A stretch of 64,000 nucleotides of DNA from Thermoplasmata archaeon (GCA_034667725.1 JAXDQS010000003.1:256001-320000), one strand, 5' to 3'. Positions 1-35,236 are shown, numbered from the stretch's first letter. Notes: generated by a model from the letters alone, not told the origin. Numbers and translations: made by a program.

Positions 1-1008
1 GAGCTCAACGACCTCTGGCTCTTGGCGCCCGTCGTGCTCGGCGTCTCGCTCTTGCCCCTGGTCATCCTGCGCTTCGCCCCCCGCGCCTTCGACTGGGTCG
101 GCAACCGCCGCCGCGCCACCCCGCCCGCCTGGTACCGCTTCGTCGTGAGCGGCATCCTGGTCGGCGCCCTGTTCGCCATCAGCCTGCCCGCCTTCGCCAA
201 GGGCCTGCCCCAGTTCGTGGACCTGCCCGGCATGTTCGGCTGGCCCATCCTCGCCATGGCCGCCGTCGGCCTCGCCATCCTGCCGTTCGCCCGCAGCCCC
301 GGCGCCCACCTTGGCGTCGCCATGGCGATCGCGACCTACCCCTTCGTGGTCCACAACCCGCTCGACTCCGAGTTCTGGCCGCACCGCACCGCCGTCTACC
401 TCGGCGTGGCGCTCGCGATGCTGGCCGGTGTCGCCGGCGGCTTCCTGGCCCGCGTCACCTGCAAGGCCTTCGAGGACGCCACCTCGTCCGGCCGCAGCGG
501 CGCCGAGGCCGAGACCGAGGCCGCCTACACGCTGCCCAAGACCCCCTCGGCCCGCCCGATGTTCGTCGTGCTGCCCGCCCTGATCGTGGCGGTCTGCCTG
601 GCCGGCGGCGTGTACGCGGCCACCCCCGACCGCTACGACGAGGGCTGGTACCGCCTCTACAGCAACTGCGAGCTCAAGGGCCTGCAGGAGGTCGCCTCCT
701 GGGTCGACGCCGAGCCGGAGGCGCTGGTGATCGCCGGCTCCTGGCAAGCCAAGCTGGTCTTGGCCGGTGTGGCCACCGACGCCTCGCGCATCTGGTTCAA
801 GCCCGAGTTCTTCACCGACGCGGGCGAACGCGACGCCACCATGCGGCAACTGGCCAAGGACGGCCGGCCCTTGGTCGTCGTCGTGGACGGCCACCTCCCC
901 GACGAGACGCCCGGCGCCGACCTCAGCTTCCTCGAGTCGATGCCCTACCAGAAGATCGGCTCCTGGTGCAGCAACACCAAGCCGATGGCGGCCTACACGG
1001 CGGTGTGA
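1..1008 (+). CDS. Multi-pass membrane protein, 5' truncated by the window edge (possible GT-C-like glycan assembly protein)
   Basis: Frame open from base 1; several hydrophobic helices followed by a soluble C-terminal domain; directly upstream of a GT2 gene. Confidence 0.6.
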   Translation, partial: ELNDLWLLAPVVLGVSLLPLVILRFAPRAFDWVGNRRRATPPAWYRFVVSGILVGALFAISLPAFAKGLPQFVDLPGMFGWPILAMAAVGLAILPFARSPGAHLGVAMAIATYPFVVHNPLDSEFWPHRTAVYLGVALAMLAGVAGGFLARVTCKAFEDATSSGRSGAEAETEAAYTLPKTPSARPMFVVLPALIVAVCLAGGVYAATPDRYDEGWYRLYSNCELKGLQEVASWVDAEPEALVIAGSWQAKLVLAGVATDASRIWFKPEFFTDAGERDATMRQLAKDGRPLVVVVDGHLPDETPGADLSFLESMPYQKIGSWCSNTKPMAAYTAV

Positions 1009-1012
1009 CGCG

Positions 1013-1780
1013 ATGCAGCCCCCCACCCCGGCCGCCGCGCCGCACAAGCCCGGCCTCGTCACCATCGTCGTGCCCGCCAAGGACGAGGAGGCCGCCATCG
1101 GCGGCACCCTGCGCTCCCTCCCCGTCGAGACCCTGGCCGCCGCCGGCTTCCGCTCGGAGGTGTTCGTGCTCGACGGCCGCAGCAAGGACCGCACCGCCGA
1201 CATCGCCCGCGCATGGGGCGCGCAGGTCCTCACCGACCGCGTGCCCGGCAAGGCCGCCGCCCTCCGGGAGGCCCGCCCGCTGTTCGCCGGCGACTACGTC
1301 GTGATGCTGGACGCCGACGGCACCTACGCCCCGGACGCCATCCCGCGCATGGCCTCGCTCTTGGCCTGGGACCACGCCGACGTCGTCATGGGCCGCCGCA
1401 TCATCCAGGAAGGCGCCATGTCGGTGACGCACCGCTACGGCAACCGCGCCCTCAGCCTCGGCGCCACCATGCTCTACGGCCGCCGCTGCCCCGACCTGTG
1501 CACCGGCCTGTGGGGCTTCCGCCGCGACGCGTTCCAGAGCCTGCCCCTGACCAGCACCGGCTTCGAGCTGGAGGCCGAGCTGTTCGCGCTCTCCGCCCGC
1601 CTGGGCTACCGCATCGCCCACGTGCGCGCCGACTACATGCCGCGCCCCGGCGAGTCCAAGCTCAACGGCGCCCGCGACGGCCTGCGCATCGGCTGGACCC
1701 TGGTCCGCACCCGCTTCACCACGCTGCCCGAGGTCGGCCCCGCCGGCGGCAACCGCAACCCCCGGGAGGCGAGCGCGTGA
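1013..1780 (+). CDS. Glycosyltransferase family 2 (DPM-synthase-like)
   Basis: IVVPAKDEE, LDGRSKDRT, MLDADGTY (DxD) and GFELEAE motifs; ATG at 1013. Confidence 0.92.
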   Translation: MQPPTPAAAPHKPGLVTIVVPAKDEEAAIGGTLRSLPVETLAAAGFRSEVFVLDGRSKDRTADIARAWGAQVLTDRVPGKAAALREARPLFAGDYVVMLDADGTYAPDAIPRMASLLAWDHADVVMGRRIIQEGAMSVTHRYGNRALSLGATMLYGRRCPDLCTGLWGFRRDAFQSLPLTSTGFELEAELFALSARLGYRIAHVRADYMPRPGESKLNGARDGLRIGWTLVRTRFTTLPEVGPAGGNRNPREASA

Positions 1781-3297
1781 AGGCAGCCGCCCTCGTCGCC
1801 ACCCTGTTCGTGGCGGCCGTCCTGCTGGCCGGCTGCGGCGACTCCGCCGGCGACACCGCGCTGCGGGAGAAGCTCAAGAAGCCCAGCCTGCAGATGCCGG
1901 GCGGCACCGACATGGTCAAGGTGCTCGGCACCCAGGACGGCGCCCTCCGCCTGCTGGGCGACCCCGACACCAGCGGCCTCGACGACTGGACCCCCGAGTT
2001 CGACTCGGTGCCCACCCTCGTCGACTTCGACGGCGACGGCCGCAGCGAGGTCGTCACCTACGGCGGCGACGGCCAGGTCCACGTCTTCCGCCAGGACGGC
2101 AAGGTGCTGGCGCGCCTGCCCACCACCGTCCCCGACGGCTGGTACGTGGACCGCTACCTCAACGGCGCCGACGCGGCCGTGATGCACCCCGGCGAGGCCC
2201 CCAGCATCGTCGTGGCCAGCCCGGCCGGCTACGTCGCGCTGTGGAAACTGCAAGGCAAGGGCGGCGACAGCCTGACCTTCGCGAAGGCATGGGAGCGCCG
2301 CATGGACGACTGCATCGACGGCGCCTCGATGGACGCCAGCGCCACGCTGGCCGACCTCGACGGCGACGGCGGCCGCGAAATCCTCGTCCAGGCGGAGGAG
2401 CGCGGCCTGTTCGCCCTCAACGCCGACGGCACGCTCCGCTGGGGCTGGTGCTGGGGCGGCGGCAACGCCGCGCCCATCGCCGAGGACCTCGACGGCGACG
2501 GCCGGCGCGAGGCCATCTTCGCCTCCGACGGCGGCGTCGTGTCGGTGTTCGACGGCGCCAAGGGCTTCCCGCTCTGGACCTTCGACGCCACCCAGTACGG
2601 CTTCACGCCCGCCAGCATCTCGGTGAGCCCCACGGTCGCCGAGCTCGACGGGGTCGCGCCCAAGGAGGTGCTGTTCACCGTCCGGCAGGCCGAGTCCGGC
2701 CGCCCCGACACCTTCGCCAGCCAGCACATGGGCATCTTCGCGGTCCACGGCCGGCAAGGCGCCGACCACGGCGCCGAGGCGCTCTGGGTCCGCAACCCGC
2801 AGTGGGCCAATCCCCTGAGCTACACCATGCTGCGCGCCGGCGACCTCGACGGCGACGGCATGACGGAAATCTACGGCATGGACTGGAACACCATCGGCCA
2901 CAACCCCGGCAACTGGGAGAACGTCGGCAAGCCGCACGTGTTCCGCCTGGACGCCAGCGGCCTCGAGGCCTGGGTCACCGAGCTGGAGACCTGGTGGTCG
3001 AACAAGGACATCGCGATCGCGGACCTGGACGGCGACGGCGTGCAGGACATCCTGGCCACCGGCCCCTACGAGGGCGCCGACGGCATCTGGGCCCTCCGGT
3101 CCAGCGACGGCCGCCCCACCGCGTTCGTGCCGACCCTCGGCTGGGAGCTGCTGCGCGGCCCCAGCGTCGCCGACCTCGACCGCGACGGCAAGGTGGACCT
3201 CGTCGTCCCCGTCAAGCCAGCCAACACCTCGGGCGAGGCGGGCGGCGTCGCGGTCATCCAGATCGAGGCCACCTACACGACGGGGGCTTGGCGATGA
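1777..3297 (+). CDS. FG-GAP/VCBS repeat beta-propeller lipoprotein
   Basis: GTG overlaps the upstream stop; lipobox LLAGC; repeated D(F/L)DGDG calcium-blade motifs. Confidence 0.85.
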   Translation: MKAAALVATLFVAAVLLAGCGDSAGDTALREKLKKPSLQMPGGTDMVKVLGTQDGALRLLGDPDTSGLDDWTPEFDSVPTLVDFDGDGRSEVVTYGGDGQVHVFRQDGKVLARLPTTVPDGWYVDRYLNGADAAVMHPGEAPSIVVASPAGYVALWKLQGKGGDSLTFAKAWERRMDDCIDGASMDASATLADLDGDGGREILVQAEERGLFALNADGTLRWGWCWGGGNAAPIAEDLDGDGRREAIFASDGGVVSVFDGAKGFPLWTFDATQYGFTPASISVSPTVAELDGVAPKEVLFTVRQAESGRPDTFASQHMGIFAVHGRQGADHGAEALWVRNPQWANPLSYTMLRAGDLDGDGMTEIYGMDWNTIGHNPGNWENVGKPHVFRLDASGLEAWVTELETWWSNKDIAIADLDGDGVQDILATGPYEGADGIWALRSSDGRPTAFVPTLGWELLRGPSVADLDRDGKVDLVVPVKPANTSGEAGGVAVIQIEATYTTGAWR

Positions 3298-5720
3298 AGA
3301 TTCTCCCACGCGTGGCCGTCACCGGCCTCTTGGTGATGACGGCGTTCGCGATGGTGCCGCCCGCGTCGGCCGCCACCAACCTGGTGCGCAGCATGACCAA
3401 CACCACCTCGAACCCGGCCGTCGCGTTCGCGGCCTTCGACGGCAACCCGGCCAAGCTGTTCGACTTCGACAACGACGGCGACCTGGAGATCGTCGCCCAG
3501 AACGACAACAACTGGGCGTACATCTTCGACTCCCGCACGGGCGCCATGAAGGCGGAGCTGAAGACCAGCTTCCCGTCCGGCTGGGGCGCCCGCACCTTCA
3601 ACGGCCCCGAGGCCTACCGTGAGGGCGGCACCTCCTACCTGGTGCTGGTCAACTCGGCCGCCACCGTCACCAAGTACCGCTTCGACGCAAGCACCGCCGC
3701 CAACGCCAAGTGGACCTTCGTCAAGGAGTGGGAACGCCGCCTGTCCGACTGCTTCAGCGGGCCGGGCAGCGACTCCAAGCCCGTGATCCACGACCTCGAC
3801 CGCGACGGCCACTACGACATCATCGGCACCACCGAGGAGTCCGGCGTCTACGCCCTGCGCGGCGACGGCTCGCTGCTGTGGAAGACCTGCATCGGCGGCG
3901 GCAACGCCGACGCGGCCGTGGCCGACCTCAACCTGGACGGCTGGCCCGAGGTGGTGCATGTCTCCGACGGCGGCGTCGTGACCGCGCTCAACGGCCGCAC
4001 CGGCGGCCAGGTGTGGCGCTACGACGCCCGCGCCGCCTTCAGCCTCGGCTCCGGCAGCATCCCCGTCGGCCCCGGCATCGGCCAGCTCGACGGCATCGGC
4101 GGCCCCGACGTGGTCTTCGGCGCCCGCGACTCGCACGACCCCGACAACGTCGACGCCAACCATGCCTTGATCGCGGCCTTGGACTCCAACGGCAAGCTGC
4201 TGTGGGGCCGCCGCGACCCGAACGCCAACCCGCTCACCTACACCCACCCGATCGTCGCGGACGCCGACAACGACGGCCGCAACGAGGTCTACTGGGGCGA
4301 CTGGAACACCATGGGCCACAAGCCGCCCTTCGACGAGTCGCAGGCGTGGCAGCTCACCGGCCCCGCCAACTACTACCGCTACGACCACGCCGGCAACCTG
4401 GTGTGGCGCACCGAGCTTGCCACCTACTGGAGCAACAAGGACCTGGTGCTTGCCGACGTGGACGGCGACGGCGCCCAGGAGATCGTGGCCAACGGCCCCG
4501 GCTCCGGCGGCGACGGCCTGTGGTACCTCAACGCCGCCACCGGCGCCAAGGAGACCTTCGTCGGCATCAACCCCTACAAGGTCCAGCGCAACGCCATCGC
4601 CGGCGACCTGTGGAACACCAACACGCTGCAGCTCGTCGTCGAGGCCAGCCCGGCCGCCAGCGGCGCGCAGGGCCCGGCCATCCAGATCTACGACACCCAC
4701 GTCGGCTACAACGCGATGTGGCCGCACCTGCCCGACCCCGCTCCCCTCGGCGGCGGCGTGACGCCTCCGCCGCCTCCGCCGCCCCCGCCTCCGCCCCCCC
4801 CGCCGACCGGGCCGTTCGACGCCACCTTCACCGCCGTGCGCGGCAACGAATGGTGGGTCCAGGCCAACGTCGGCGCCACCGGCGAGGCCCTCGACAAAGT
4901 GGACGTCAGCCTGAACGGCGGCGCCTGGAAGCCCCTCACGAAGCAGTCGTGGGGCGGCTGGGGCGCGTCCTACCAGGTCGTGCAAGGCACCGTGGTGCAG
5001 CTGCGCGCCACCTCGACGGCCGGCTCGACCGACCCGAGCGCGTGCTACCAGTGGATCCCGCCCAGCAACGTGGACGCGACCCAAGTGGACTGCGAGAGCA
5101 CGCCCACCGAGCCGCCCCCGCCCCCGCCGCCCAGCGGCGCGTTCGACGCCGTCTACAGCCAAGTGCGCGGCAACGAGTGGTGGGAGCAGACGGTCGTCAG
5201 CGCCGCCGGCCACACCGTCGCCAAGGTGGACGTCCGCCTCAACGGCGGCGCCTGGAAGCCCCTGACGAAACAGTCGTGGGGCGGCTGGGCCGCGTCCTAC
5301 CAGGTCGTGCAAGGCACCGTCGTGCAGTTCCAGGCGACCTCCGGCACGGGCGCCATCGACCTCAGCGACTGCTACCAGTGGATTCCGCCCAGCAACGTGG
5401 ACGCCAGCAAGGTCGCGTGCAGCGGCGGCACCCCGCCCCCGCCACCCCCGCCGCCTCCGCCGCCGACCGGGACGTTCACCGCCTCGTTCGTGCCCAAGTC
5501 GCAAGGCAACGACTGGTGGGTCGAGGTGCAGGTCACCGCCAACCACCCCCTCGCCAAGGTGGAGGCCCAGGTCAACACCAACGGCTGGGTCGTCCTCGAC
5601 AAGCAGAGCTGGGGCAACTACGCCAAGTCGTTCTTCGTCGCCAACGGCAGCATCGTCAAGTTCCGCGCCACCGACACCGGCGGCGCCATGGTCGTGAGCG
5701 GCAGCTACCTGTGGGGATGA
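3294..5720 (+). CDS. Secreted FG-GAP repeat protein with three C-terminal Trp-rich repeats and polyproline linkers
   Basis: Signal peptide MKILPR...PASA; DFDNDG/DLDRDG/DVDGDG motifs; three GN(E/D)WW...KQSWG modules. Confidence 0.85.
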   Translation: MKILPRVAVTGLLVMTAFAMVPPASAATNLVRSMTNTTSNPAVAFAAFDGNPAKLFDFDNDGDLEIVAQNDNNWAYIFDSRTGAMKAELKTSFPSGWGARTFNGPEAYREGGTSYLVLVNSAATVTKYRFDASTAANAKWTFVKEWERRLSDCFSGPGSDSKPVIHDLDRDGHYDIIGTTEESGVYALRGDGSLLWKTCIGGGNADAAVADLNLDGWPEVVHVSDGGVVTALNGRTGGQVWRYDARAAFSLGSGSIPVGPGIGQLDGIGGPDVVFGARDSHDPDNVDANHALIAALDSNGKLLWGRRDPNANPLTYTHPIVADADNDGRNEVYWGDWNTMGHKPPFDESQAWQLTGPANYYRYDHAGNLVWRTELATYWSNKDLVLADVDGDGAQEIVANGPGSGGDGLWYLNAATGAKETFVGINPYKVQRNAIAGDLWNTNTLQLVVEASPAASGAQGPAIQIYDTHVGYNAMWPHLPDPAPLGGGVTPPPPPPPPPPPPPPTGPFDATFTAVRGNEWWVQANVGATGEALDKVDVSLNGGAWKPLTKQSWGGWGASYQVVQGTVVQLRATSTAGSTDPSACYQWIPPSNVDATQVDCESTPTEPPPPPPPSGAFDAVYSQVRGNEWWEQTVVSAAGHTVAKVDVRLNGGAWKPLTKQSWGGWAASYQVVQGTVVQFQATSGTGAIDLSDCYQWIPPSNVDASKVACSGGTPPPPPPPPPPPTGTFTASFVPKSQGNDWWVEVQVTANHPLAKVEAQVNTNGWVVLDKQSWGNYAKSFFVANGSIVKFRATDTGGAMVVSGSYLWG
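4813..5717 (+). repeat. Three intragenic ~80-95 aa domain repeats (about 4813-5092, 5141-5420, 5474-5717) separated by CCG-rich polyproline tracts
   Basis: Copies 1 and 2 share near-identical DNA (aacggcggcgcctggaagccc...tcctaccaggtcgtgcaaggcaccgt); copy 3 is more diverged. Confidence 0.9.
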
Positions 5721-6892
5721 CCATGGGCGAGAGCAAGCGCATCACCCTGGTCTCGCCCTACGACCCCACGCCGGACCAGCTCGACACCAAAGGCGCCAAG
5801 GTCGGCGGCGTCGAGCGGGTGTTCGCCGAGGTCGCCAAGGGCCTGGTGGCCCGCGGCCACGACGTGACGATGCTGTGCAGCACCTCGGGCCCGCCCCGGC
5901 GGACGGTCGACGACAACCTGCGCACCATCCGGGTCCATCGCCACGCGACCCTGTTCCGTGACCCGGTGTGCCGCCTCGACCGGCACCTGCCGCCCGGCGC
6001 GGACATCGTGCACGTCGCGGCCACCTACCCGTTCACGACGGCGCCCGTGCTGCGGCGCGCCGACCGCGACGGCGCGGTGCCGGTGCTGGACTTCCACTTC
6101 GAGCCGCACCCCGGCAGCGCCGCCGGCCGCCTTGCCGCAGCACTCTACCGCAAGGTCGGCCCGCCGAGCTACAGCGTCGCCCAGGCGGTCCTGGTGCGCT
6201 CGCACGCCTACGCCGAGTCGGCCCCGAGCCTGGCCGGCGTGCCGGCGGAGCGGCTCCGGATCGTGCCCAACGGCATCGACCCGGCCCGCTTCCGCCCGGA
6301 CGGCCCCGCCAGCCCCGGCGACTACCTGCTGTTCGTCGGCCGCCTCGTGCCCTACAAGGGCGTCGAGGTGCTGCTGCACGCCATGGCCCTCGCCCGCCTC
6401 GGCCTTCCCTTGGTGGTCGTCGGCGACGGCCCGCGCAAGCCGTTCCTGGAGTCGCTGGCGCGCAACCTCGGCGTCGAGGTGCGCTGGCTCGGCCACATCC
6501 CCGACGACATGCTGCCCATCCTGTACCGCGGCGCCACCCTCACGGTGCTGCCCAGCGTCAACCGCCAGGAGGCCTTCGGCATCGCCCTCATCGAGTCGAT
6601 GGCGTGCGGCACCCCGGTCGTGGCCTCCGCGCTGCGCGGCGTCGAGGACGTCGCCAAGGTCGGCGGCCTCACGGTGCCGCCCGGCGACCCGGCCGCCCTC
6701 GCCCAAGCGCTGCAGCAGGCCATCGCCGCCAACCTGCCGCGCGGCGCGGCGCTGGCCCGCAAGGTGCACGCCCTGTTCTCGTGGGACGCGGTCACCGACC
6801 GCCTCGTCCAAGTGTACGACGAGGCGCTCGCGGGCCGCCCCCGCCGCGAGGTGAACCCCCATGCGCATCCTGGCGGTCACGCCGTACTATAG
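5717..6892 (+). CDS. Glycosyltransferase family 4
   Basis: GGVER, VPNGID, FVGRLVPYKG and EAFGIALIESMACGTPVV (Ex7E) motifs. Confidence 0.93.
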   Translation: MTMGESKRITLVSPYDPTPDQLDTKGAKVGGVERVFAEVAKGLVARGHDVTMLCSTSGPPRRTVDDNLRTIRVHRHATLFRDPVCRLDRHLPPGADIVHVAATYPFTTAPVLRRADRDGAVPVLDFHFEPHPGSAAGRLAAALYRKVGPPSYSVAQAVLVRSHAYAESAPSLAGVPAERLRIVPNGIDPARFRPDGPASPGDYLLFVGRLVPYKGVEVLLHAMALARLGLPLVVVGDGPRKPFLESLARNLGVEVRWLGHIPDDMLPILYRGATLTVLPSVNRQEAFGIALIESMACGTPVVASALRGVEDVAKVGGLTVPPGDPAALAQALQQAIAANLPRGAALARKVHALFSWDAVTDRLVQVYDEALAGRPRREVNPHAHPGGHAVL

Positions 6893-7985
6893 CCCCGAGG
6901 GCGGCGGCCTGGAGCGGTACGCGCACCAGATCCTGCGCCGCCTGGCCGGGCGCGGCCACGACGTGCAGGCGCTCGCCTTCAGCCAGACGCGCGCCGGCCG
7001 CGTCGACGTCGAGGGCGTCCCGGTCGAGTTCACCATGCCCGACTTCCGCATCGGCAACGCCCCCGTCGGCGCCGGCTTCCTGGGCGCCGTGCGCGACCGC
7101 ATCGCCCGCGACCGCCCCGACGTCGTGCTGGCGCACACGCCCGTGCCGTTCTCGGCCGAGATGGCAAGCCTCGCCGCCGCGCGCGCCGGCGTCCCGTTCG
7201 TCGCGACCTACCACGCCGGCCGGCTGCAAGGCAGCACCGGCGTCCGCAACGTGCTCGCGGCCCTCGACCGCGCCACCTTGGAGCGCCGGATGCTCAAGAA
7301 CGCCGCGCGGCTGATCGCCGTGACACCGTACGTCCGCGACCACGCGCTCGGGAAGCACAAGGACCGCGTCGCCATCATCCCGCCGGGCGTCGACCACGCC
7401 ACCTTCGCGCCGCAGCCGATGGAGGACGCGCCCCCCAAGGAGGTGCTGTTCGTCGGCCCGCTGGACCGCAGCTACGGCTGGAAAGGGGCCGACGTGCTGT
7501 GGGACGCGTTCCAGGCCGTCGCCAAGGCGCACCCCGCCGCCCGGCTGCGGCTGGTGGGCAAGGGCGACCGCGCCGCCGAGTTCCGGCGCCTGGGCGCCCG
7601 CCTCGGCGGCGTCGAGGTCAGCGGCCGCCTCAGCGACCCGGAGCTGGTCGCGGCCTACAACCGCGCCTGCGTCACGGTGCTGCCCAGCCTGACCGACGCC
7701 GAGTCGTTCGGCATGGTGCTGGCCGAGGCCAACGCCTGCGAGCGGCCCGTGGTGGCAAGCCGGGTCGGCGGCATCCCCGACTTCGTGGCCCACGGCGAGA
7801 ACGGCCTGCTGGCGGCGCCCGGCGACGCGCGCGACCTGGCGGCGCAGCTGTGCGCGGTGCTGGCGGACGAAGGGATGGCGCGCCGGATGGGCCGCGCGGG
7901 CCGCAAGCGCGTGATCGAGGGGCACGACTGGGACGAGCTTGCGAAGCGGACGGAAGCCGTGCTGGCCGACGCCGCCAACGCTTAG
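6861..7985 (+). CDS. Glycosyltransferase family 4
   Basis: GGLERY, IPPGVD, ESFGMVLAEANAC and GENGLL motifs. Confidence 0.93.
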   Translation: MRILAVTPYYSPEGGGLERYAHQILRRLAGRGHDVQALAFSQTRAGRVDVEGVPVEFTMPDFRIGNAPVGAGFLGAVRDRIARDRPDVVLAHTPVPFSAEMASLAAARAGVPFVATYHAGRLQGSTGVRNVLAALDRATLERRMLKNAARLIAVTPYVRDHALGKHKDRVAIIPPGVDHATFAPQPMEDAPPKEVLFVGPLDRSYGWKGADVLWDAFQAVAKAHPAARLRLVGKGDRAAEFRRLGARLGGVEVSGRLSDPELVAAYNRACVTVLPSLTDAESFGMVLAEANACERPVVASRVGGIPDFVAHGENGLLAAPGDARDLAAQLCAVLADEGMARRMGRAGRKRVIEGHDWDELAKRTEAVLADAANA

Positions 7986-8056
7986 TCTGGTTCGTTCGAG
8001 GCAAGCGGTGCCGCGCCAGCAAGTCCTTTCCGCGCGGACGGTTGCCGACGCTTGCG

Positions 8057-10087: not shown

Positions 10088-10956
10088 TCCGCCGGCTTCG
10101 GCTCGGGCTCCGGCTTCGGCTCCCAGCGCCGCAGCACCACGAACCAGAAGCACGCCATGAACAAGGCGAACAGGATCCAGCCCATGTGGGCGTGCGCGGT
10201 CTGCAGCGCGGCGGGGCCCCAGGCGATGCCGATGCGGGCCAGGATCACCAGCCGGAGGATGTTCATCACCCACAGTCCGGCCAGGCCCAGCAACAGCGTG
10301 GCCGCCAGGCGGGTGCCCGGCATCTTGGTCTGCCAGGCGTGCAGCCCGACCAGCCCGAGGAACAGGACGATGGGGTACAAGCCGGCGCAGACCAGGCCGA
10401 CGCCAAGCGTCAGCCCGCCGCGCGGGGTCTCGAGGACCAGGTTGTGGCCGACGACCTCGACGGGGGTGCCCAGCAGCACCAGGCCGAAGGCGGTGGGGGC
10501 GACGACCAAGGAGGCGACCGCGCCCGCGGCGCCAGAGCCCGCCTCGGGGCTCGACACCATCGCGTTGGAGGCGAACAGCACCATCGGCGCCAGCAGCAAG
10601 GGGAACGACCAGCCGACAAGGCTGCCGACCTCGACCTTGCCGAGCTTCCGGTCCAAGAACGGGGAGGAGGCGAGAAGGGCGGCGCCGTAGGCCAGGAGGC
10701 CCCACTCGGGGAGGCCGAGGCCGTTGGCGCGCACCGCGTTGACCGCGATGGTGCCGACGACCAAGGCCGCCCCGAGGGCGGCGACCCAGCGGCCGCGCCG
10801 CATCTGGATGCGCGGGAGCCCGAAGGCGAGGATGGCTGCGCCCGCGGCCAGGCTCAGGAACCCCGCGACCGGGGATTCGTGGGCCAGGAGGCCGAGGAGG
10901 ACGAGGAGCCCGTAGCCGGCCAACAGGAGGCCGAGGAGGCTGCGCAGCCCGCCCAT
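10084..10956 (-). CDS. Archaeosortase/exosortase family membrane transpeptidase
   Basis: About 8 TM helices with the Cys (LVCAGL), Arg (NILRL) and His (AHAHMGW) triad in exosortase order. Confidence 0.88.
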   Translation of the reverse strand: MGGLRSLLGLLLAGYGLLVLLGLLAHESPVAGFLSLAAGAAILAFGLPRIQMRRGRWVAALGAALVVGTIAVNAVRANGLGLPEWGLLAYGAALLASSPFLDRKLGKVEVGSLVGWSFPLLLAPMVLFASNAMVSSPEAGSGAAGAVASLVVAPTAFGLVLLGTPVEVVGHNLVLETPRGGLTLGVGLVCAGLYPIVLFLGLVGLHAWQTKMPGTRLAATLLLGLAGLWVMNILRLVILARIGIAWGPAALQTAHAHMGWILFALFMACFWFVVLRRWEPKPEPEPKPAD

Positions 10957-10960
10957 CGGC

Positions 10961-11785
10961 TCACTCCTGCTTCCGGCGGGCGATGGCGTAGGCCGCGGTG
11001 CCGAGGAGGCCGGCGGCGCCGACCGCGACGAAGGTCGGCAGGTCGGGGATGGTGGTGACCTCGACCTGCGCGCAGCCCTCGCTCTCGGAGTCGCCGAACA
11101 GCGCCGTCACCATGTAGGTGTAAGTGACGCCGTCCTCGGTGTCCGCGTCGATGTACGTACCGACGCCGGCGTCGAGGTTGGCGATGTGCTCGAAGTCGCC
11201 GTCGCCCTCGGCGCGGTACACCATGGTGCCGTTGCTGCCGGGGGCGGGCGTGAAGGTCAGCTCGACCGAGCCGTCGCTGCGGGCCAGCAGCACGAGGTCG
11301 GTGGGGCACGGCAGCTCCTCCGGGGGCGGGCACTGCTCGGAGCCCTCCTCGCACTCGGGCGCGCACTCCTCGACCCAGAACATCTTGTTCTTGGTGCTGT
11401 CCTTGCCGTCGTCCTCGGTGACCTCGAGGCGGTAGTGGCCGGCGGCCAGGGTGTAGGGGCCGCTCAGGAAGTGGAAGCCCTCCTCGTCGTCGCCCGTGTC
11501 CGCCGTCCATTCGCCGTCCAGCACCATCGTCATGTCGCCCGTCGGGGGCCAGGAGAAGATCTCGAACGAGCCGGTGCCGGCGTTCATGTTGAAGCCTTCG
11601 ATCCAGAAGTCCTCGCAGTCGACGTGCGGGATGTTGCGCGTCGGCGGGTCGGCGGTCTCCTCGTCGTGGACCTTGACGTCGCCCGCGTGGCCGTGGGCGC
11701 TGGTGGGCGTGGCAAAGAGGACGAAAGCCCCGGCGATGGCCAGGGACAGGACGGTGGCGGTGCGTGCATTGAGCATAAGGCTCAC
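10961..11785 (-). CDS. Secreted acidic protein with FN3-like domain and C-terminal sorting signal (IPDLPT-TM-RRK)
   Basis: Signal peptide; VYRAEG...YIDADTEDGVTYTYMVTA FN3-like pattern; tripartite C-terminus; 4 nt upstream of the archaeosortase. Alternative ATG at 11776. Confidence 0.82.
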   Translation of the reverse strand: MSLMLNARTATVLSLAIAGAFVLFATPTSAHGHAGDVKVHDEETADPPTRNIPHVDCEDFWIEGFNMNAGTGSFEIFSWPPTGDMTMVLDGEWTADTGDDEEGFHFLSGPYTLAAGHYRLEVTEDDGKDSTKNKMFWVEECAPECEEGSEQCPPPEELPCPTDLVLLARSDGSVELTFTPAPGSNGTMVYRAEGDGDFEHIANLDAGVGTYIDADTEDGVTYTYMVTALFGDSESEGCAQVEVTTIPDLPTFVAVGAAGLLGTAAYAIARRKQE

Positions 11786-11868
11786 TGGAATGTCTCGCGC
11801 GGCGCTCCATTAGGCGTGTTGGGACAACGATCCATGGCACGTTCCTCGAAGCTACTGCCGGGTCGCCG

Positions 11869-11958
11869 CCTAGGGGCTTCGCCCCTAGGACCCCCTGGCG
11901 CGTCACGGCGCTGCGCGCGCGACGCACCGAACGCCTTCGCTTCGCGTTCGGCGCGCGC
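11869..11958. promoter_or_regulatory. Two inverted repeats between the nucleotidyltransferase and the sortase-substrate gene
   Basis: CCTAGGGGC-ttc-GCCCCTAGG (11869-11889, perfect 9 bp) and CCGAACGC-N9-GCGTTCGG (11927-11951); function unknown. Confidence 0.5.
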
Positions 11959-11978
11959 CGACGCGCGACCCTTCCCCA

Positions 11979-12968
11979 TCATTGCCGCGTCGCCGCCCGC
12001 AGCCTTGCCAACTCCGCCGTGGGGTCCGGCGCCGCGCGCGGCCCGAGGATGCGGACGGCGTCAGCGGGTGCGATGGCGGGCTCCGGCGTTGCCTCCAGCA
12101 GCCGCAGCGTCGCCTGCCGCACCTTCATGGTGGGGTGCCGCAGCAGCCGGGCCTGCGCCTGGCCTCGGCTCCGCGCCAGGTACAAGAGGTGGTCGACCAC
12201 GCCGTCGCCGGCCGGCCCCGCCAGCCGCAGCGCGGTCGGCACGGCGTCGAGCAGGGCCGCGCGCGCGGCCCGCCACGCCTGCGCGGCGTCGCGCGGGGGC
12301 GCGTGCGCGAGGTCCACCTTGAAGGCGAAGGCCCACTCGAACCACGCCCGCCGCGCCTCGACGGCGGGGATCGGGGGCAGCCGGGCCCACAGCTCCTGGC
12401 GCTCGCGCTGGCTGGGCGCGAACGCGCCCGCGCCCAGGAGGTGCGCGTCCAAGGCGGCAAGCAGCGCCTTGGCCGCCTGGATGCGGCGCGCGTGCGGGTC
12501 GGCGTTCGGCGTCACCAAGAGGAGGCCGGCGGCGCGGTTGGCCACCAGCCGGAGCGCCTCGCCGGGCGCCAGGTCCTGGGGGCCGCGCACTGGGATGCGG
12601 TCCAACAGCGGTTCGCCCCACACGGTCTTGCCCCGGAGCGCGGTCTCGTACCAGAAGATGGACGGGGCGACGCGCGGCAGGCGGGCGGCGGCGACGGGCG
12701 CGAGGTCGATGTGCAGGCCCAGCTCGGCCTCGAGCTGGCGCGCGAGGGGGCCGTAGCGCGCGGGCGCGCCCAGCCGCCGGACGGCGACGAAGTCGTAGTC
12801 GTTCTGCGGGACGCCGTCGAGCACCGTGCCCTCGCCGCGCGCGAACCCGCCCGTCAGCACCAGGCTGCGGAGGGCGGGGTCGCGGGCGCGGACCGCCTCG
12901 GCGACGCGGGCGAGGTCGCCTTCGACCCGCGCCACGACCTCCGGCGTGTCCCGGAGGGTGTAGCTCAT
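11979..12968 (-). CDS. Pol-beta superfamily nucleotidyltransferase-domain protein
   Basis: LVLTGGFARGEG...NDYDFV motif and a later IDL third Asp; ATG overlaps the upstream stop. Confidence 0.8.
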   Translation of the reverse strand: MSYTLRDTPEVVARVEGDLARVAEAVRARDPALRSLVLTGGFARGEGTVLDGVPQNDYDFVAVRRLGAPARYGPLARQLEAELGLHIDLAPVAAARLPRVAPSIFWYETALRGKTVWGEPLLDRIPVRGPQDLAPGEALRLVANRAAGLLLVTPNADPHARRIQAAKALLAALDAHLLGAGAFAPSQRERQELWARLPPIPAVEARRAWFEWAFAFKVDLAHAPPRDAAQAWRAARAALLDAVPTALRLAGPAGDGVVDHLLYLARSRGQAQARLLRHPTMKVRQATLRLLEATPEPAIAPADAVRILGPRAAPDPTAELARLRAATRQ

Positions 12969-14230
12969 GCCTGCTTGCGGGCCGAGGCGGGGGCCACTTG
13001 GATGGGGGCCCGGAGCAGCGACTCGCCCTCGTTGGTGTCGGGGACGGGCAGGCGGAGCATGTCGCACAGGGTGGGGAACACGTCCACGAGGCTGCGGTTG
13101 CCGACGGGGTGGGGCGGGACCCGGCCGGGGCTCGACGAGATGACCATGGCGCCCATGCCCTCCTCGGACTTGTCGAGGTAGCCGTGCATGCCGACGATCT
13201 TCGAGTCGGTGACGTGGAAGTAGTCGGGCCAGTACATCACACCCGGGTTCGCGATGAGCATCCGGTCGCCCCAGCGCCGGTCCATCGGGATGCGGCGCGC
13301 CTTGCGCTCGTCGTCGGACAGCACCCGGCTGCCGGCGATGCCGGGCAGGACGGCCTCGACGGCGTCGCGGCCCTTGGGGGTCAGGTACCACAGCACCGCG
13401 ATGGTCGAGTTGACGAAGACCACGTAATCCTCGGCTTCCTTGGCGCCGCTGGCCCGGAGCGCCTTGAGGACGTTGACCTCCTGGCGGACGGGGCCCATGC
13501 CGTGGTCGCCGCAGATGAACAGGTCCCACGAGTCGTAGCCGGCGGACAGGGCGGCGTGGATGCTGGCGAACTTCTGGTCGAGCTCGCGCAGGTGGCCTTT
13601 CTGCATCTTGTCGCTGAAGGGGCCGTCGACGTGGCCGCGCTGGTCGCACACCGAGAACTGGGCGACGTAGAGGTCGTAGGGGGCCGAGGCGCGCAGCTCG
13701 CGCACCAGGATCTCGTGGATCTCGTTGTCGACGCCGGAGATGGGGTGGGCCAGGTAACGGAAGCGGAGGTCGTTCTCGCGGCACAGGTCGAAGATCGACT
13801 TGGCGCCCAAGGCACCGGGCTCGTACATCGGCTTCATGTCCTCGCACATGGCGAAGCTGGGCAGGAACTTCGGCGGGATCCAGGCGGGGTCGGTGTGGAA
13901 CGCGCCGGTCTTCATCTTGGTGATCTTCTCGACCACCTTGCGCGTCGGCCAGAACAGCTTCTTGGGACGCACCAGCGCCCGCAGCGGGCCGAGCTTGCGG
14001 ACCCACTTGAACGGGCTCTCCTCGGGGTTGAACACGAACTGGCTGAAGTTGCCGGAGGTGTCGGGGTAGCGGCCGGAGAACAGCACCGTGCGCTGGGCGA
14101 AGCCGGGCGGGCTCTCGAACGAGCCCGTGAGGGACTTCTGGGCAAGGCCGTGCAAAAACGGCATCGTGTCGGGGCGGACGTAGTCGGCCCTGCCGGCATC
14201 CATGATGATGAAGACGGTCGCGTGGGTCAT
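12965..14230 (-). CDS. Alkaline phosphatase superfamily / type I phosphodiesterase-like protein
   Basis: IIMDAGR, DQRGH, GDHGM and GMHGY metal-ligand motifs; SLVDVFPTL. Confidence 0.87.
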   Translation of the reverse strand: MTHATVFIIMDAGRADYVRPDTMPFLHGLAQKSLTGSFESPPGFAQRTVLFSGRYPDTSGNFSQFVFNPEESPFKWVRKLGPLRALVRPKKLFWPTRKVVEKITKMKTGAFHTDPAWIPPKFLPSFAMCEDMKPMYEPGALGAKSIFDLCRENDLRFRYLAHPISGVDNEIHEILVRELRASAPYDLYVAQFSVCDQRGHVDGPFSDKMQKGHLRELDQKFASIHAALSAGYDSWDLFICGDHGMGPVRQEVNVLKALRASGAKEAEDYVVFVNSTIAVLWYLTPKGRDAVEAVLPGIAGSRVLSDDERKARRIPMDRRWGDRMLIANPGVMYWPDYFHVTDSKIVGMHGYLDKSEEGMGAMVISSSPGRVPPHPVGNRSLVDVFPTLCDMLRLPVPDTNEGESLLRAPIQVAPASARKQA

Positions 14231-15186
14231 GTGGGGGTCTCCTTGGGGGTCTTGCGGCGGCTGCGCCCGAGGGCGAGCCCGTGCACATACTGGACGAGGA
14301 AGGCGAGGTCGAAGGCGGGGGAGGCGGCGACCCCGCGCACGAGGTGCAGGGCCGGCAGGCTGCGGCGGCGGCGCACGGCGCGCCGCACGGCCGGGACCCA
14401 GAGGGCGCCGGCCAAGAGGGGCAAGCCGAGGATGGGCAGCCAGACGGCAACCAGGGCGCAAGCGGCAAGCCCGCCGCCCCACGCGAGCACCTCGCGCTGG
14501 ACGCCGAGCTCGCTGGCGTAGGCGCCGCAGCCGTAGCCCTCGCGGACGTTCTTGCGCATCTCCTGGCGCAAGGTGGCGACGTCGTGGTGGCGGACCACCA
14601 TGCGCGGGTTGTAGACGGCGGTGTAGCCCTCGGCGGCGGCCCGTTGCGCCAGCAGCAGGTCCTCGGCGGCGTTGGCCCACGGGTCGAACGGGTGGCGCTC
14701 CAGGATGGTGCGCTTGTAGCCGGCGGCGACGTTGGAGGCGAACCGTAGCGGCTCGGGGGTCTCGCCGTCGGGGAAGTGGTAGCGCAGGCCGCGCACGGCG
14801 GCGGCCGTCGTCCAGCGCTCGGGCGAGTGGATCTGCGGGCCGAACGCCATGTCGGCCTTGGCCAGCGAGGACGCCATCTCGGCGGTCCAGTGCTCGTCGG
14901 GCTCGGCGTCGGCGGACAGGAACGCGATCCAGTCCGATTTGGCCATCGCGACGCCGCGGTTGCGGGCCTCGCCGATCGGGAGGCAGGTGTCGGCCATGCT
15001 CAGGCGCAGCGGGACCGGGAACTCGGTCTGGGCCTGGCGCAGGATGGCGCCGGTGCGGTCGGTGCTGGCGGCGTCGACCACGAGGACCTCGAAGTCGCGC
15101 ATCCGTTGGCGGGCGAGCGCTGCGAGGGTGGCGCCGATGTTGCGCTCCTCATTCAGCGTCAGCACCACGACCGACAGGCGCGGCAT
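14227..15186 (-). CDS. Glycosyltransferase family 2 with C-terminal membrane helices
   Basis: SVVVLTLNEE, VVDAASTDRT, ARNRG, FLSADA and AED motifs. Confidence 0.9.
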   Translation of the reverse strand: MPRLSVVVLTLNEERNIGATLAALARQRMRDFEVLVVDAASTDRTGAILRQAQTEFPVPLRLSMADTCLPIGEARNRGVAMAKSDWIAFLSADAEPDEHWTAEMASSLAKADMAFGPQIHSPERWTTAAAVRGLRYHFPDGETPEPLRFASNVAAGYKRTILERHPFDPWANAAEDLLLAQRAAAEGYTAVYNPRMVVRHHDVATLRQEMRKNVREGYGCGAYASELGVQREVLAWGGGLAACALVAVWLPILGLPLLAGALWVPAVRRAVRRRRSLPALHLVRGVAASPAFDLAFLVQYVHGLALGRSRRKTPKETPT

Positions 15187-16435
15187 CCGGCATCACCTCC
15201 TGCGGGCGGGCTTCGCGGGTTTCTTGGTGCAGGCGCCAGGTGGCGTAGGCGGCGAACGGCACGTTGGCCAACAGCCAGGCGAACGCGGCGCCGGTGGTGC
15301 CGGACGAGCCGGCGAGGGTGGGGGCAAGCACGAGGAGCATGGCGAGCGTGAGGGTGGGCAGCAGCACCATGGGGGCGGTGTGCTCGCGGGCGCGCAGCAC
15401 CGACAGCGCGAGGCTGGCGGGGGCCGCAAGCAGGGCGCTGGCGGCCAGCACCACGAGCGCCGGCGCGGCGTCGGCGTAGCCGGGCCCGAAGACGCCGAGC
15501 AGCCACGGCGCCAGCAGCGCGAGGCCGGCGGCGCCGGGCAGGACGATCCACGCCTGCTGCCGCAGCGCCCGCCGGAGGGTGGCGGGGTCGGGCTCGCGCG
15601 CGACCAGTTGCCGCAGCGCGCTGCGGGCGATGGCGGAGCACGCCAGCAGCAGCATCGAGGCCAGGGTCCAGGCCATGGCGAAGTGCGCCGCGGCCTCGGG
15701 GCCCTGCACCGCGAGCAGGATGGGGGTCAAGAGCAGGCCCGGCAGGAACTCGGCGGCGGTGCCGGCCATGTTCCGCACGGCGCTTGCGACGAAGGTGCGG
15801 CGCGAGACGGGCGTCCCGCCCGCGTGCTCGATGCGGCGCTGGATGCGGTTGCCGACGACGACGGCGCACAGCACGCCGATGGCCCAGGCCAGCGGGATGA
15901 CCAACGGCAGCACCAAGGCGAGGGCGACGGCGGCGACGATGCGCACGACGGCGCCGCCCAGGTTGCGCGCGGCGGCCTGGCCGGCGCGGCCGCCGGACAG
16001 CAGCACGGCGTCCTGGAGCCAGGCGTAGAGCAGCAGCATCCCGATGAGGGCGACGAGCAGCCATTCGGTGCGGCCCAGCTCGGGCCACGCGCCGGCGGAG
16101 GTGCCCCACAGGGCCAGCACGCCCCAGACGGCGAGCAGGAAGGCGCCGCCGAGGCCGAGGGCGAAGCCGAACAGGTTGCCCTCGCGGCCCGTGGACGGCA
16201 GGTAGCGCAACAGCGCGGTGTCGAGGCCGCCCTTGGCGAGCACCGCGACCAAGGTGCCGAGGGCGATGACCGCGGAGCCGACGCCGACCTCACGGGCGGG
16301 GAGTTGCAGCACCCGGGTCGCCACCAGCCAGAACACGAGTCCCGCCGCTGCCGTGGCGACCGTGTTCAGCATGAGGTAGGCGGCGTCGCGGTGCTGCGCC
16401 TGGGCCCAGGCCTGGCGGAGTCTCGGCAGGGTCAT
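15149..16435 (-). CDS. Oligosaccharide flippase (Wzx/MOP family)
   Basis: About 12 TM helices; GLVFWLVATR...EVGVGS...GLDTALLRYLP and LGVFGPGY patterns; located in a GT operon. Confidence 0.8.
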   Translation of the reverse strand: MTLPRLRQAWAQAQHRDAAYLMLNTVATAAAGLVFWLVATRVLQLPAREVGVGSAVIALGTLVAVLAKGGLDTALLRYLPSTGREGNLFGFALGLGGAFLLAVWGVLALWGTSAGAWPELGRTEWLLVALIGMLLLYAWLQDAVLLSGGRAGQAAARNLGGAVVRIVAAVALALVLPLVIPLAWAIGVLCAVVVGNRIQRRIEHAGGTPVSRRTFVASAVRNMAGTAAEFLPGLLLTPILLAVQGPEAAAHFAMAWTLASMLLLACSAIARSALRQLVAREPDPATLRRALRQQAWIVLPGAAGLALLAPWLLGVFGPGYADAAPALVVLAASALLAAPASLALSVLRAREHTAPMVLLPTLTLAMLLVLAPTLAGSSGTTGAAFAWLLANVPFAAYATWRLHQETREARPQEVMPDAAPVGRGADAE

Positions 16436-16444
16436 CCGGCACGC

Positions 16445-16981
16445 TCAGGGAGAGGCCGGGACGGCTTCGTTCAGGACGCGCTGCGCGGCCGGGCTCAGGG
16501 CGTACAGCGTGCCGCCGGGGCCTTGGCGCTCGAGGTCGCCGGCCTGCAGCATCCGGGTGAGGTGGTAGCCGAGGGTGCTGTCGGCGCAGCCGAGGCGGCG
16601 GCGCAGCTCGGTGCGCGCCAGCGGCCCGGCCAATAGCAACTGGGCGATCTGGCGGGGCACCGGGCGGGCCAGGCGCGCCATGCCGGGGCGGAGCTGGGGC
16701 TCGTGGCCGTCGGTGACGAAGAACCGGCTGAACCGGCCGTCCTTGACCTCCACCAGGAGGCCTTGGCGGGCCAGGCGGTCGACGTGGTGGCGGAGCTGGC
16801 CGTTGGAGTGCAGGCTGGCGGCGCGCTCCAGGCCGCGGAAGTGGATGCCGGGGCTGGCGCGCACGATGTGGCAGAGCTTGACGCCGACGGGGGCTTCGGC
16901 GGGGGCCTGCATGGGGGCGGACATCCACGATGGGCCGGTCGCGGCCGAGGCAAGGGCGGGGCGGGGCTCGTCCATGGTCAT
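16445..16981 (-). CDS. Archaeal double winged-HTH transcriptional regulator
   Basis: PGIHFRGLER...GQLRHHVDRL and RTELRRRLG...STLGYHLTRM HTH motifs; start uncertain (16981, 16975 or 16924). Confidence 0.82.
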   Translation of the reverse strand: MTMDEPRPALASAATGPSWMSAPMQAPAEAPVGVKLCHIVRASPGIHFRGLERAASLHSNGQLRHHVDRLARQGLLVEVKDGRFSRFFVTDGHEPQLRPGMARLARPVPRQIAQLLLAGPLARTELRRRLGCADSTLGYHLTRMLQAGDLERQGPGGTLYALSPAAQRVLNEAVPASP

Positions 16982-16986
16982 CCGCC

Positions 16987-17009
16987 AACCATCTGGCGTC
17001 GAGATGGTT
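16987..17009. promoter_or_regulatory. Candidate operator palindrome AACCATCT-N7-AGATGGTT overlapping the wHTH promoter
   Basis: Perfect 8-bp inverted repeat between a TTCATAA box (minus strand, 17014-17008) and the ATG at 16981. Confidence 0.55.
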
Positions 17010-17134
17010 ATGAAGCATGGGGGCGGATTCGTTGCCACATCCCTCGAAATGTGGGAACAAACCTAGGCAATGCCGCGGCGGCGCGCGGCGGGAGGGGCAA
17101 GGTTCAAGGGTTCCATCGGCCCAAGTCCCGTGAC

Positions 17135-35025: not shown

Positions 35026-35213
35026 GCAGGCAACTGCCTGCCTGCCGGCTCGTTGGTTGCGCATCCAGGTTCCACCTGCAACCAACCCCCTAGCCTCTCC
35101 TGGAGGCCCCGGGTTCGTCAGGAGGGAAACGGTCCATGGGCCGGTTCAGCGAAACCTGAACCCGTTCGATTCCTGACGCGAAATCCACCAGGAAAACAAC
35201 GGAAACCGGGGCC
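35026..35213 (+). ncRNA. Candidate structured leader / nested inverted-repeat element upstream of the giant gene
   Basis: At least six complementary pairs: GCAGGC/GCCTGC, GTTGGTTG..CAGGT/ACCTGCAACCAAC, GCCTC/GAGGC, GGCCCCGG/CCGGGGCC, CGTCAGGA/TCCTGACG, GGTTCAG/CTGAACC. Confidence 0.45.
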
Positions 35214-35236
35214 ACGATCAGCCAAAAAGACCAAGA

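Follow-up and report, generated by a model that had tools for sequence, protein, structure and literature searches.

We analysed a 64,000-nucleotide stretch of the genome of a Thermoplasmata archaeon (GCA_034667725.1, JAXDQS010000003.1:256001–320000; hereafter the window) and found that genes for an archaeosortase and its putative substrate (the cargo) lie between the two convergent operons of a conserved surface-glycan locus, where they form an optional cassette. The evidence leans modestly towards functional coupling of this pair to the locus, as an accessory cassette. The stretch corresponds to G000:C3:256001–320000, in a metagenome-assembled genome (MAG; G000) of 2.32 Mb with 71% GC and about 90% completeness. 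The plus-strand operon encodes a predicted GT-C-fold glycosyltransferase (g1), a family-2 glycosyltransferase (GT2a), two FG-GAP proteins and two family-4 glycosyltransferases (GT4a and GT4b), followed by a hybrid histidine kinase. The minus-strand operon encodes a helix–turn–helix (HTH) regulator, a Wzx-type flippase, a second family-2 glycosyltransferase (GT2b), an alkaline-phosphatase-superfamily (AlkP-like) protein and a nucleotidyltransferase-fold (NTase-like) protein, followed by the cargo and the sortase.

The gene at 10084–10956 (minus strand) encodes a 290-aa protein that a first-pass annotation of the stretch had called an archaeosortase. Searches with hidden Markov models bear this out: the protein scores above the cut-offs of PF09721 (31.9 bits; cut-off, 25.7) and TIGR04178 (48 bits; cut-off, 23), which refutes an absence of exosortase similarity. 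The best-scoring named subfamily is archaeosortase C (ArtC; TIGR03762), at 61.4 bits, below the cut-off of 100 and across residues 150–274 only. The ArtA model TIGR04125 (cut-off, 75) gave no match, nor did the XrtA model TIGR03109 at E ≤ 0.01, and the score against TIGR02602 (22.8 bits) stayed below the cut-off of 105.55. The topology comprises about eight hydrophobic helices, and Cys190, Arg235 and His255 are invariant in three paralogues and 20 homologues. On sequence, the protein is a true member of the exosortase/archaeosortase family, of ArtC-like type. G000 encodes four members of this family—an ArtA on contig C10 (123 bits; cut-off, 75) and three ArtC-like paralogues that are 31–32% identical to one another—and the two ArtC-like paralogues outside the window score 50 and 57 bits against TIGR03762, below its cut-off. 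In a sortase tree, the window type forms its own clade (98/94 support), and the glycan-linked members form one subclade (100/98 support) that follows taxonomy. The genome is archaeal: in addition to ArtA it encodes AglB/STT3, and inspection of the sequence alone points to an aEF-1alpha/S10 gene pair.

The cargo gene (10961–11785, minus strand; start GTG 11785 or ATG 11776) is separated from the sortase gene by 4 nt and encodes a tail-anchored secreted protein of 271 aa, with a Sec signal, two β-sandwich domains resembling fibronectin type III (FnIII) and a tail composed of TTIPDLPT, a transmembrane (TM) helix and RRKQE. Its AlphaFold2 (AF2) model (pLDDT 84) has FnIII fold matches. The protein is a plausible sortase substrate, as was first proposed for this neighbour of the sortase, with its tripartite tail and its co-distribution with the enzyme (see below). 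A genome-wide tail scan identified seven PEF-like tails (IPDLP twice, IPDLG, IPEFP, IPSFP, VPSFP and VPFFP), two of which adjoin the other two ArtC-like sortases. When cargo anatomy and motif class were compared across 11 or more homologues, cargo orthologues beside orthologous sortases in other genomes were found to carry IPVFP, IPEFP or IPFFP. This rules out IPDLP as a new specificity class; it is a variant PEF-type signal, one of the forms covered by the single motif [ST]IPx[FL]P. No tail reached the cut-off of the PEF-CTERM model TIGR03024 (23 bits)—the IPEFP paralogue scored 17.7 bits and the G010 tail 13.1 bits—and the IPDLP tail of the window gave no match to this model. With five FnIII-type PEF-like cargos encoded in the genome, a sortase dedicated to a single carrier is not supported. 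Four of these five lie no more than two genes from a PAS or hybrid histidine kinase (G000:C5:54938–58892, G000:C1:277433–281075 and window 8057–11785), with one kinase between two cargos on C5, in a genome with only about 25 HATPase_c loci among about 2,000 genes; this proximity recalls PrsK/PrsR of bacterial PEP-CTERM systems. In G000, about 130 predicted proteins have a C-terminal hydrophobic helix together with an Arg/Lys cluster; PGF motifs occur in just three of these and PEF-like motifs in seven. Many of the others share an Ala/Pro-rich segment ahead of the helix and a final RRR, and may be simple tail anchors or form another sorting class.

We compared the locus across 38 species genomes of the order, the relatives being deposited as Thermoplasmatota MAGs. 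Orthologues of the window sortase (49–58% identity) occur in nine genomes from five genera and two families, and the glycan locus, marked by its AlkP-like gene, occurs in 20, including 10 of the 12 congeners. All nine sortase genomes carry the AlkP-marked locus, compared with 11 of the 29 others; at the genus level, all five sortase genera fall within the seven locus-bearing genera, out of 16. Full-length cargo is encoded in eight of the nine sortase genomes and in none of the other 29, with G028 having FnIII-plus-tail copies only. The order HTH-Wzx-GT2-AlkP-NTase-(one or two cargos)-sortase, facing GT4-GT4-FG-GAP, is found in G017, G044 and G024. The same order is seen in G026 and the metagenome contig L063, where the contig ends just past the sortase and only the side of the minus operon is visible, and the arrangement is partly present in L039, G042 (L043 and L048), L044 and L071. 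Of 15 assessable loci, about 10 show the linkage, which spans five genera; G010 has no glycan genes on its assembled side. Examination of these neighbourhoods therefore upholds the linkage of sortase, substrate, flippase, GT2, AlkP, NTase, GT4 and FG-GAP genes that had been noticed in the window, which is kept in several genera of two families.

The sortase and cargo are nevertheless optional at this position. The two operons converge with no sortase, cargo or kinase between them in G008 (90 bp), G027 (46 bp) and G002 (840 bp), and the cargo gene of the window has a 202-nt gap of its own upstream, after the NTase-like gene; the pair thus amounts to an optional insertion where the two operons of an older locus meet. 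Read directly, the gap contains a perfect 9-bp hairpin, CCTAGGGGC-GAA-GCCCCTAGG (11869..11889, minus strand), and a TATA-like CCTAATGG (11806–11813, minus strand) about 28 nt before GTG 11785; the hairpin may serve as a terminator or operator and the TATA-like box as a separate promoter. The distribution of the locus (20 of 38 genomes versus nine of 38 for the sortase) and the empty junctions do not agree with a dedicated sortase-coupled module, as which the locus was initially described. The hybrid kinase, which had been counted as a member of that module, is a soluble protein without a TM segment (8057–10087, plus strand; PAS-PAS-HisKA-HATPase_c-REC by Pfam). It is found at this position only in G000 and is absent from the junction in L037–L048, L058, L063 and L071, which rules it out as part of the conserved module; the proteins at its position in L038, L039 and L042 match no Pfam family.

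Sortases also adjoin such genes in other arrangements. A separate, C1-type lineage (52–57% identical to the C1 paralogue of G000), which forms a distinct clade, borders the same locus at other positions: in G005 and G008 it lies 1.6–2 kb from the GT-C gene, and in G002 and G009 it lies 5.5–6 kb from the flippase gene. The cargo beside the C1-type sortase in G005 and G004 has the same N-terminal domain and a tail with IPVFP or VPVFP. In G003, a second cassette (flippase-GT2-AlkP-AlkP-NTase) is followed directly by a cargo-family gene. Its 611-aa product (L059:1–1835, G003:C323), cut off by the end of the contig, combines the shared N-terminal domain with repeated modules in the middle and a pair of FnIII domains. 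Farther afield, a Candidatus Methanoperedens MAG (L047:7516–18389, JAQUNZ010000034.1) has a tandem pair of ArtC-like sortases (TIGR03762 scores of 68.6 and 34.5 bits) near WecB, an acylphosphatase-domain protein, a sugar aminotransferase and three FemAB-family genes; the last resemble a family that NCBI names 'XrtA/PEP-CTERM system-associated'. Together, the second lineage, the G003 cassette and the Methanoperedens pair suggest that the neighbourhood is more than passive.

Several observations weigh against coupling. The glycan locus is complete and compact without a junction sortase in at least G008, G027 and G002, and the junction probably lacks one in G005, G004, G012, G009 and G029 as well, so this sortase is dispensable for the glycan pathway. 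In G028, in L045/L070 and L046/L069 (deeper-branching homologues) and on the 226-kb contig L065, the sortase orthologue is located apart from glycan genes. Four of the five FnIII-type cargos of G000 are encoded elsewhere, beside kinases, and its other two sortase paralogues are not in recognizable glycan loci. A conserved N-glycosylation sequon was sought in the cargo and not found. All genomes are MAGs, obtained from sand-filter, soil or sediment samples, and retention of the cassette between two conserved operons could be passive inheritance. The pair may thus be an independent neighbour of the locus, that is, a self-contained ArtA-like lipid-anchoring system, passively inherited in the permissive convergent junction that an unrelated locus, for Agl-like glycosylation or for a lipoglycan, happens to offer, and using an ordinary membrane lipid as acceptor. 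The many loci that are intact without the cassette, the unlinked orthologues, the cassette's own upstream region with its hairpin and TATA-like box, the cargos encoded elsewhere and the lipid anchoring of ArtA substrates (PMC6098224) all speak for such independence. The window-type sortase, however, is never found in a genome without the locus among the 38, a second sortase lineage borders the same locus, a cargo-family gene directly follows the AlkP–NTase cassette in G003, and the distant ArtC-like pair is also placed among sugar-modifying genes. We consider independence possible but doubtful, and favour coupling as an accessory cassette. At the third ArtC-like sortase of the genome (L005:10434–13906, equivalent to G000:C10:175433–178905), the gene is convergent with those of a 551-aa polytopic protein of no known family, a DUF1616 protein and an ice-binding-like protein (PF11999, 194 bits) with a VPSFP tail; a glycosylation link was sought there through the 551-aa membrane protein, which has no similarity to g1.

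The nature of the glycan pathway was assessed from the flanking genes, identified at the family or fold level. The coding sequence at 1–1008 (plus strand) is the 3′ part of g1, a 583-aa polytopic protein whose gene begins 744 nt before the window, at G000:C3:255257. The protein has no Pfam or NCBIfam match; its feature and structure neighbours in the ESM Atlas belong to PMT_2/ArnT/RgtA-like and 'dolichyl-phosphooligosaccharide-protein glycotransferase' clusters (TM-score 0.58–0.67), and its orthologues are syntenic in L044, L052 and L062. What had been listed simply as a membrane protein can be specified, from these fold-level matches, as a predicted GT-C-fold glycosyltransferase of the PMT_2/ArnT/oligosaccharyltransferase type. 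GT2a (1013–1780, plus strand), a small protein that matches PF00535 at 76 bits, appears to resemble AglJ (TIGR04182, 151 bits; cut-off, 325) and dolichyl-phosphate (Dol-P)-hexose transferases (NF041391, 103 bits; cut-off, 375), in both cases below threshold. The first FG-GAP β-propeller protein (1777–3297, plus strand; PF13517, 77 bits; PF01839, 50.6 bits) has a lipobox-like N terminus (LLAGC). The second (3294–5720, plus strand; PF13517, 56.5 bits) is a secreted propeller with a signal peptide and C-terminal expansin/CBM63-like repeats; it scores 43 bits, under the cut-off, against the expansin EXLX1 model NF041144, and its C-terminal module is found again in the loci of relatives. GT4a (5717–6892, plus strand; PF00534, 116.7 bits; PF13439, 69.2 bits) has syntenic orthologues at 54–63% identity, and GT4b (6861–7985, plus strand; PF13692, 120.5 bits; PF00534, 114.3 bits) has syntenic orthologues as well.

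On the minus strand, the flippase (15149–16435; MOP superfamily, Wzx/Polysacc_synt-like, about 10–12 TM helices) has no Pfam match. Its orthologue in L040 matches PF01943 at 6.8e-4, and its structure matches in the Atlas are Polysacc_synt, MurJ and flippase clusters (TM-score 0.81–0.88); its initial assignment, like that of the NTase-like protein, has thereby gained support at the level of fold. GT2b (14227–15186, minus strand; PF00535, 80 bits) has syntenic orthologues. The regulator at the head of the operon (16445–16981, minus strand) is a double winged-helix protein combining HVO_0163-N HTH (PF24266, 46.4 bits) with an HTH_20/ArsR-like domain (PF12840, 33.7 bits), and has orthologues at the same place in L037, L038, L040, L042 and L063. 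Co-variation of this regulator with the window-type sortase is ruled out, as HTH orthologues are present in 17 of the 38 genomes, many of them without that sortase. In the divergent region upstream of the gene (window 17000–17060, minus strand) lies an inverted repeat, CCACAT-N9-ATGTGG.

In Haloferax N-glycosylation, the AglD/AglR/AglS step relies on a GT2 for the synthesis of Dol-P-hexose, on a Wzx-like protein to flip the product and on a GT-C enzyme to add the sugar on the outer face; other GT2 and GT4 enzymes build the lipid-linked oligosaccharide. The window offers candidates for all three parts of this logic, recognized at the sub-threshold or fold level only. There are also differences from the Agl system. 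AglB is encoded elsewhere: a single STT3 match exceeds the family cut-off, at C10:64662–65921 on a different contig, with none in or beside the cluster. Nothing in the Agl system corresponds to the AlkP-like, NTase-like and FG-GAP genes. No Wzy-type polymerase, chain-length regulator (Wzz), synthase or exporter was recognized among the 14 genes with Pfam, NCBIfam and the Atlas, although divergent forms could escape such searches. Because no polymerase, chain-length regulator or exporter was recognized, the gene content fits Dol-P-type glycosylation of proteins or lipids better than a pathway for an exopolysaccharide (EPS) polymer.

In bacteria, exosortases are encoded in EPS loci, together with a dedicated kinase and regulator (Haft 2006, PMC1569441). 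The locus had first been read as an apparent analogue of the bacterial PEP-CTERM/exosortase–EPS systems, possibly for biofilm or floc formation. Spelled out as a true analogue of PEP-CTERM/XrtA, this reading would have a secreted or capsular exopolysaccharide supply the matrix of a biofilm or floc, with the sorted protein attached to it or organizing it and the kinase and HTH protein acting as regulators. The resemblances are several: an exosortase-family enzyme inside a glycosyltransferase-rich locus, GT4s with sub-threshold similarity to the glycosyltransferase families stp1–3 of the PEP-CTERM/XrtA system and to EpsE, FG-GAP and expansin-like binding modules that suggest an extracellular polysaccharide, several tail-bearing cargos, and kinases adjoining PEF-type cargos in the genome. 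Gene content and conservation nevertheless make this reading unlikely. In addition to the lack of recognized polymerase and export genes, the GT-C protein and the AglJ/Dol-P-hexose-like GT2 point to transfer of Dol-P-sugars onto proteins or lipids, the kinase is not conserved with the locus and differs in type from PrsK, the XrtA and PEP-CTERM models are not matched, the motif is IPDLP rather than PEP, and there is no outer membrane. An EPS-type pathway has consequently given way to one that is nearer to Dol-P-based glycosylation.

The AlkP-like protein (12965–14230, minus strand; Phosphodiest family, PF01663, 54 bits) is cytoplasmic and soluble, and its gene is the best conserved of the locus (52–75% identity). 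The metal ligands D11, D242/H243 and H349 are invariant, as is G43 at the position of the nucleophile, where Thr or Ser would be expected. The NTase-like protein (11979–12968, minus strand) has a two-domain Pol-beta-type fold (AF2 pLDDT 96), with Foldseek matches in the PDB to AadA/ANT(3'')(9) (TMq 0.47), MntA and HalB. It retains the motifs GGFARGEG (GGFxRGEG) and NDYD and a third aspartate, Asp88, and four of five orthologues match NTP_transf_2 weakly. The family has 843 representatives at E ≤ 0.001. Among ten long representatives, five are fused to Phosphodiest, three to GT2 and one to a B12-radical-SAM domain (P0106, P0107, P0109, P0111, P0135, P0098, P0118, P0150 and P0110); these fusions indicate that GT2-AlkP-NTase is a coupled triad, present well beyond this lineage. 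Searches of PDB sequences with the NTase-like and AlkP-like proteins, the flippase and the 551-aa membrane protein of C10 returned nothing useful.

On the favoured reading, of coupling as an accessory cassette, we infer the following catalytic steps and acceptor. Sec would export the cargo, whose C-terminal helix would keep it in the membrane. The ArtC-like sortase, using Cys190, Arg235 and His255, would recognize [ST]IPx[FL]P, remove the helix and transfer the cargo to an acceptor at the cell surface. Meanwhile, GT4a, GT4b and GT2b would assemble a lipid-linked oligosaccharide, the coupled AlkP-like/NTase-like pair would modify it and the Wzx-type flippase would move it outward; GT2a would produce Dol-P-hexose, from which the GT-C enzyme would add the hexose on the outer face. 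Binding or processing of the glycan may fall to the two FG-GAP propellers, one with expansin-like binding modules. As for the role of the glycan, decoration of the sorted proteins is the most likely, and service as their acceptor less so.

A specific form of the latter possibility deserves mention, improbable as we judge it to be: the sortase may join the cargo to the lipid-linked glycan of the flanking operons, with the AlkP-like/NTase-like pair installing a phospho-linked nucleophile, to give an archaeal anchor resembling glycosylphosphatidylinositol (GPI). Eukaryotic GPI transamidase carries out such glycolipid-acceptor transpeptidation. PorU, of the type IX secretion system, does so with A-LPS (PMC7468200). 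The likeness is conceptual—a Cys enzyme cuts a C-terminal signal and joins the protein to a lipid-linked glycan, and the synthesis genes include an AlkP-superfamily enzyme—and is an analogy only, as there is no homology and the AlkP-like protein of the window is soluble and without the usual nucleophile. If the glycan were the acceptor, an acceptor pathway would have been identified for the first time for an exosortase-superfamily member other than ArtA.

Among known sorting systems, the closest comparison is PEF-CTERM/archaeosortase C (TIGR03762/TIGR03024), with ArtC reportedly defined in methanogens by Haft, Payne and Selengut in 2012. The system is also treated in papers citing that work (PMC5244752, PMC6098224). 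The window pair shares with it a polytopic enzyme of about 290 aa with conserved Cys, Arg and His, several cargos per genome and a tripartite cargo tail with IPx[FL]P, the canonical IPEFP being found in a paralogue and in G010. It differs in that only the C-terminal 125 residues of the enzyme align and that both tails and enzyme score below the cut-offs; moreover, the lineage is Thermoplasmatota and not the methanogens of the original definition, and its sortases form two local clades and are embedded in a glycan locus. ArtA to ArtE and their signals are known, with only ArtA studied experimentally in the superfamily (PMC6098224). ArtA anchors the Haloferax S-layer glycoprotein to lipid through PGF-CTERM; this archaeal enzyme depends on Cys and cleaves off a C-terminal helix, as the window sortase is predicted to do, and its substrates are glycoproteins (PMC6098224). 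In G000, by contrast, the window enzyme is distinct from the true ArtA, which is encoded on C10, and the PGF tails are carried by other proteins. We found no paper linking archaeosortases to Thermoplasmatota, or describing the arrangement, in the literature searched, which agrees with the initial impression that such a locus had not been reported in this lineage.

Genes were called by GC content at third codon positions (GC3) because of the high GC content (71–75%), and all 14 genes listed in the first-pass annotation were confirmed at their coordinates, with no internal stops. The two convergent operons with overlapping genes that it had described were borne out, with overlaps of 4–38 nt: successive overlaps measure 4, 4, 4 and 32 nt along the plus-strand operon and 38, 4 and 4 nt along that of the minus strand, and the stop codons of the kinase and sortase genes overlap by 4 nt. 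Elsewhere in the window, positions 35177–50113 (plus strand) form one open reading frame of 4,978 codons with a coding-like GC3 of 0.97. Its only Pfam matches are weak ones to Laminin_G_3 and Big_13, and it probably encodes a giant surface protein.

The GT2-AlkP-like-NTase-like triad is widespread, uncharacterized and putatively glycan-modifying. The locus bears on two questions: which acceptors are used by members of the superfamily other than ArtA, and why the exosortase genes of bacteria are found within polysaccharide loci. Its hosts are uncultured; natural genome variants with and without the cassette allow comparison. For both questions it provides a compact archaeal case, in which a defined cargo family and two sortase lineages go together with a delimited set of genes that are candidates for building the acceptor.

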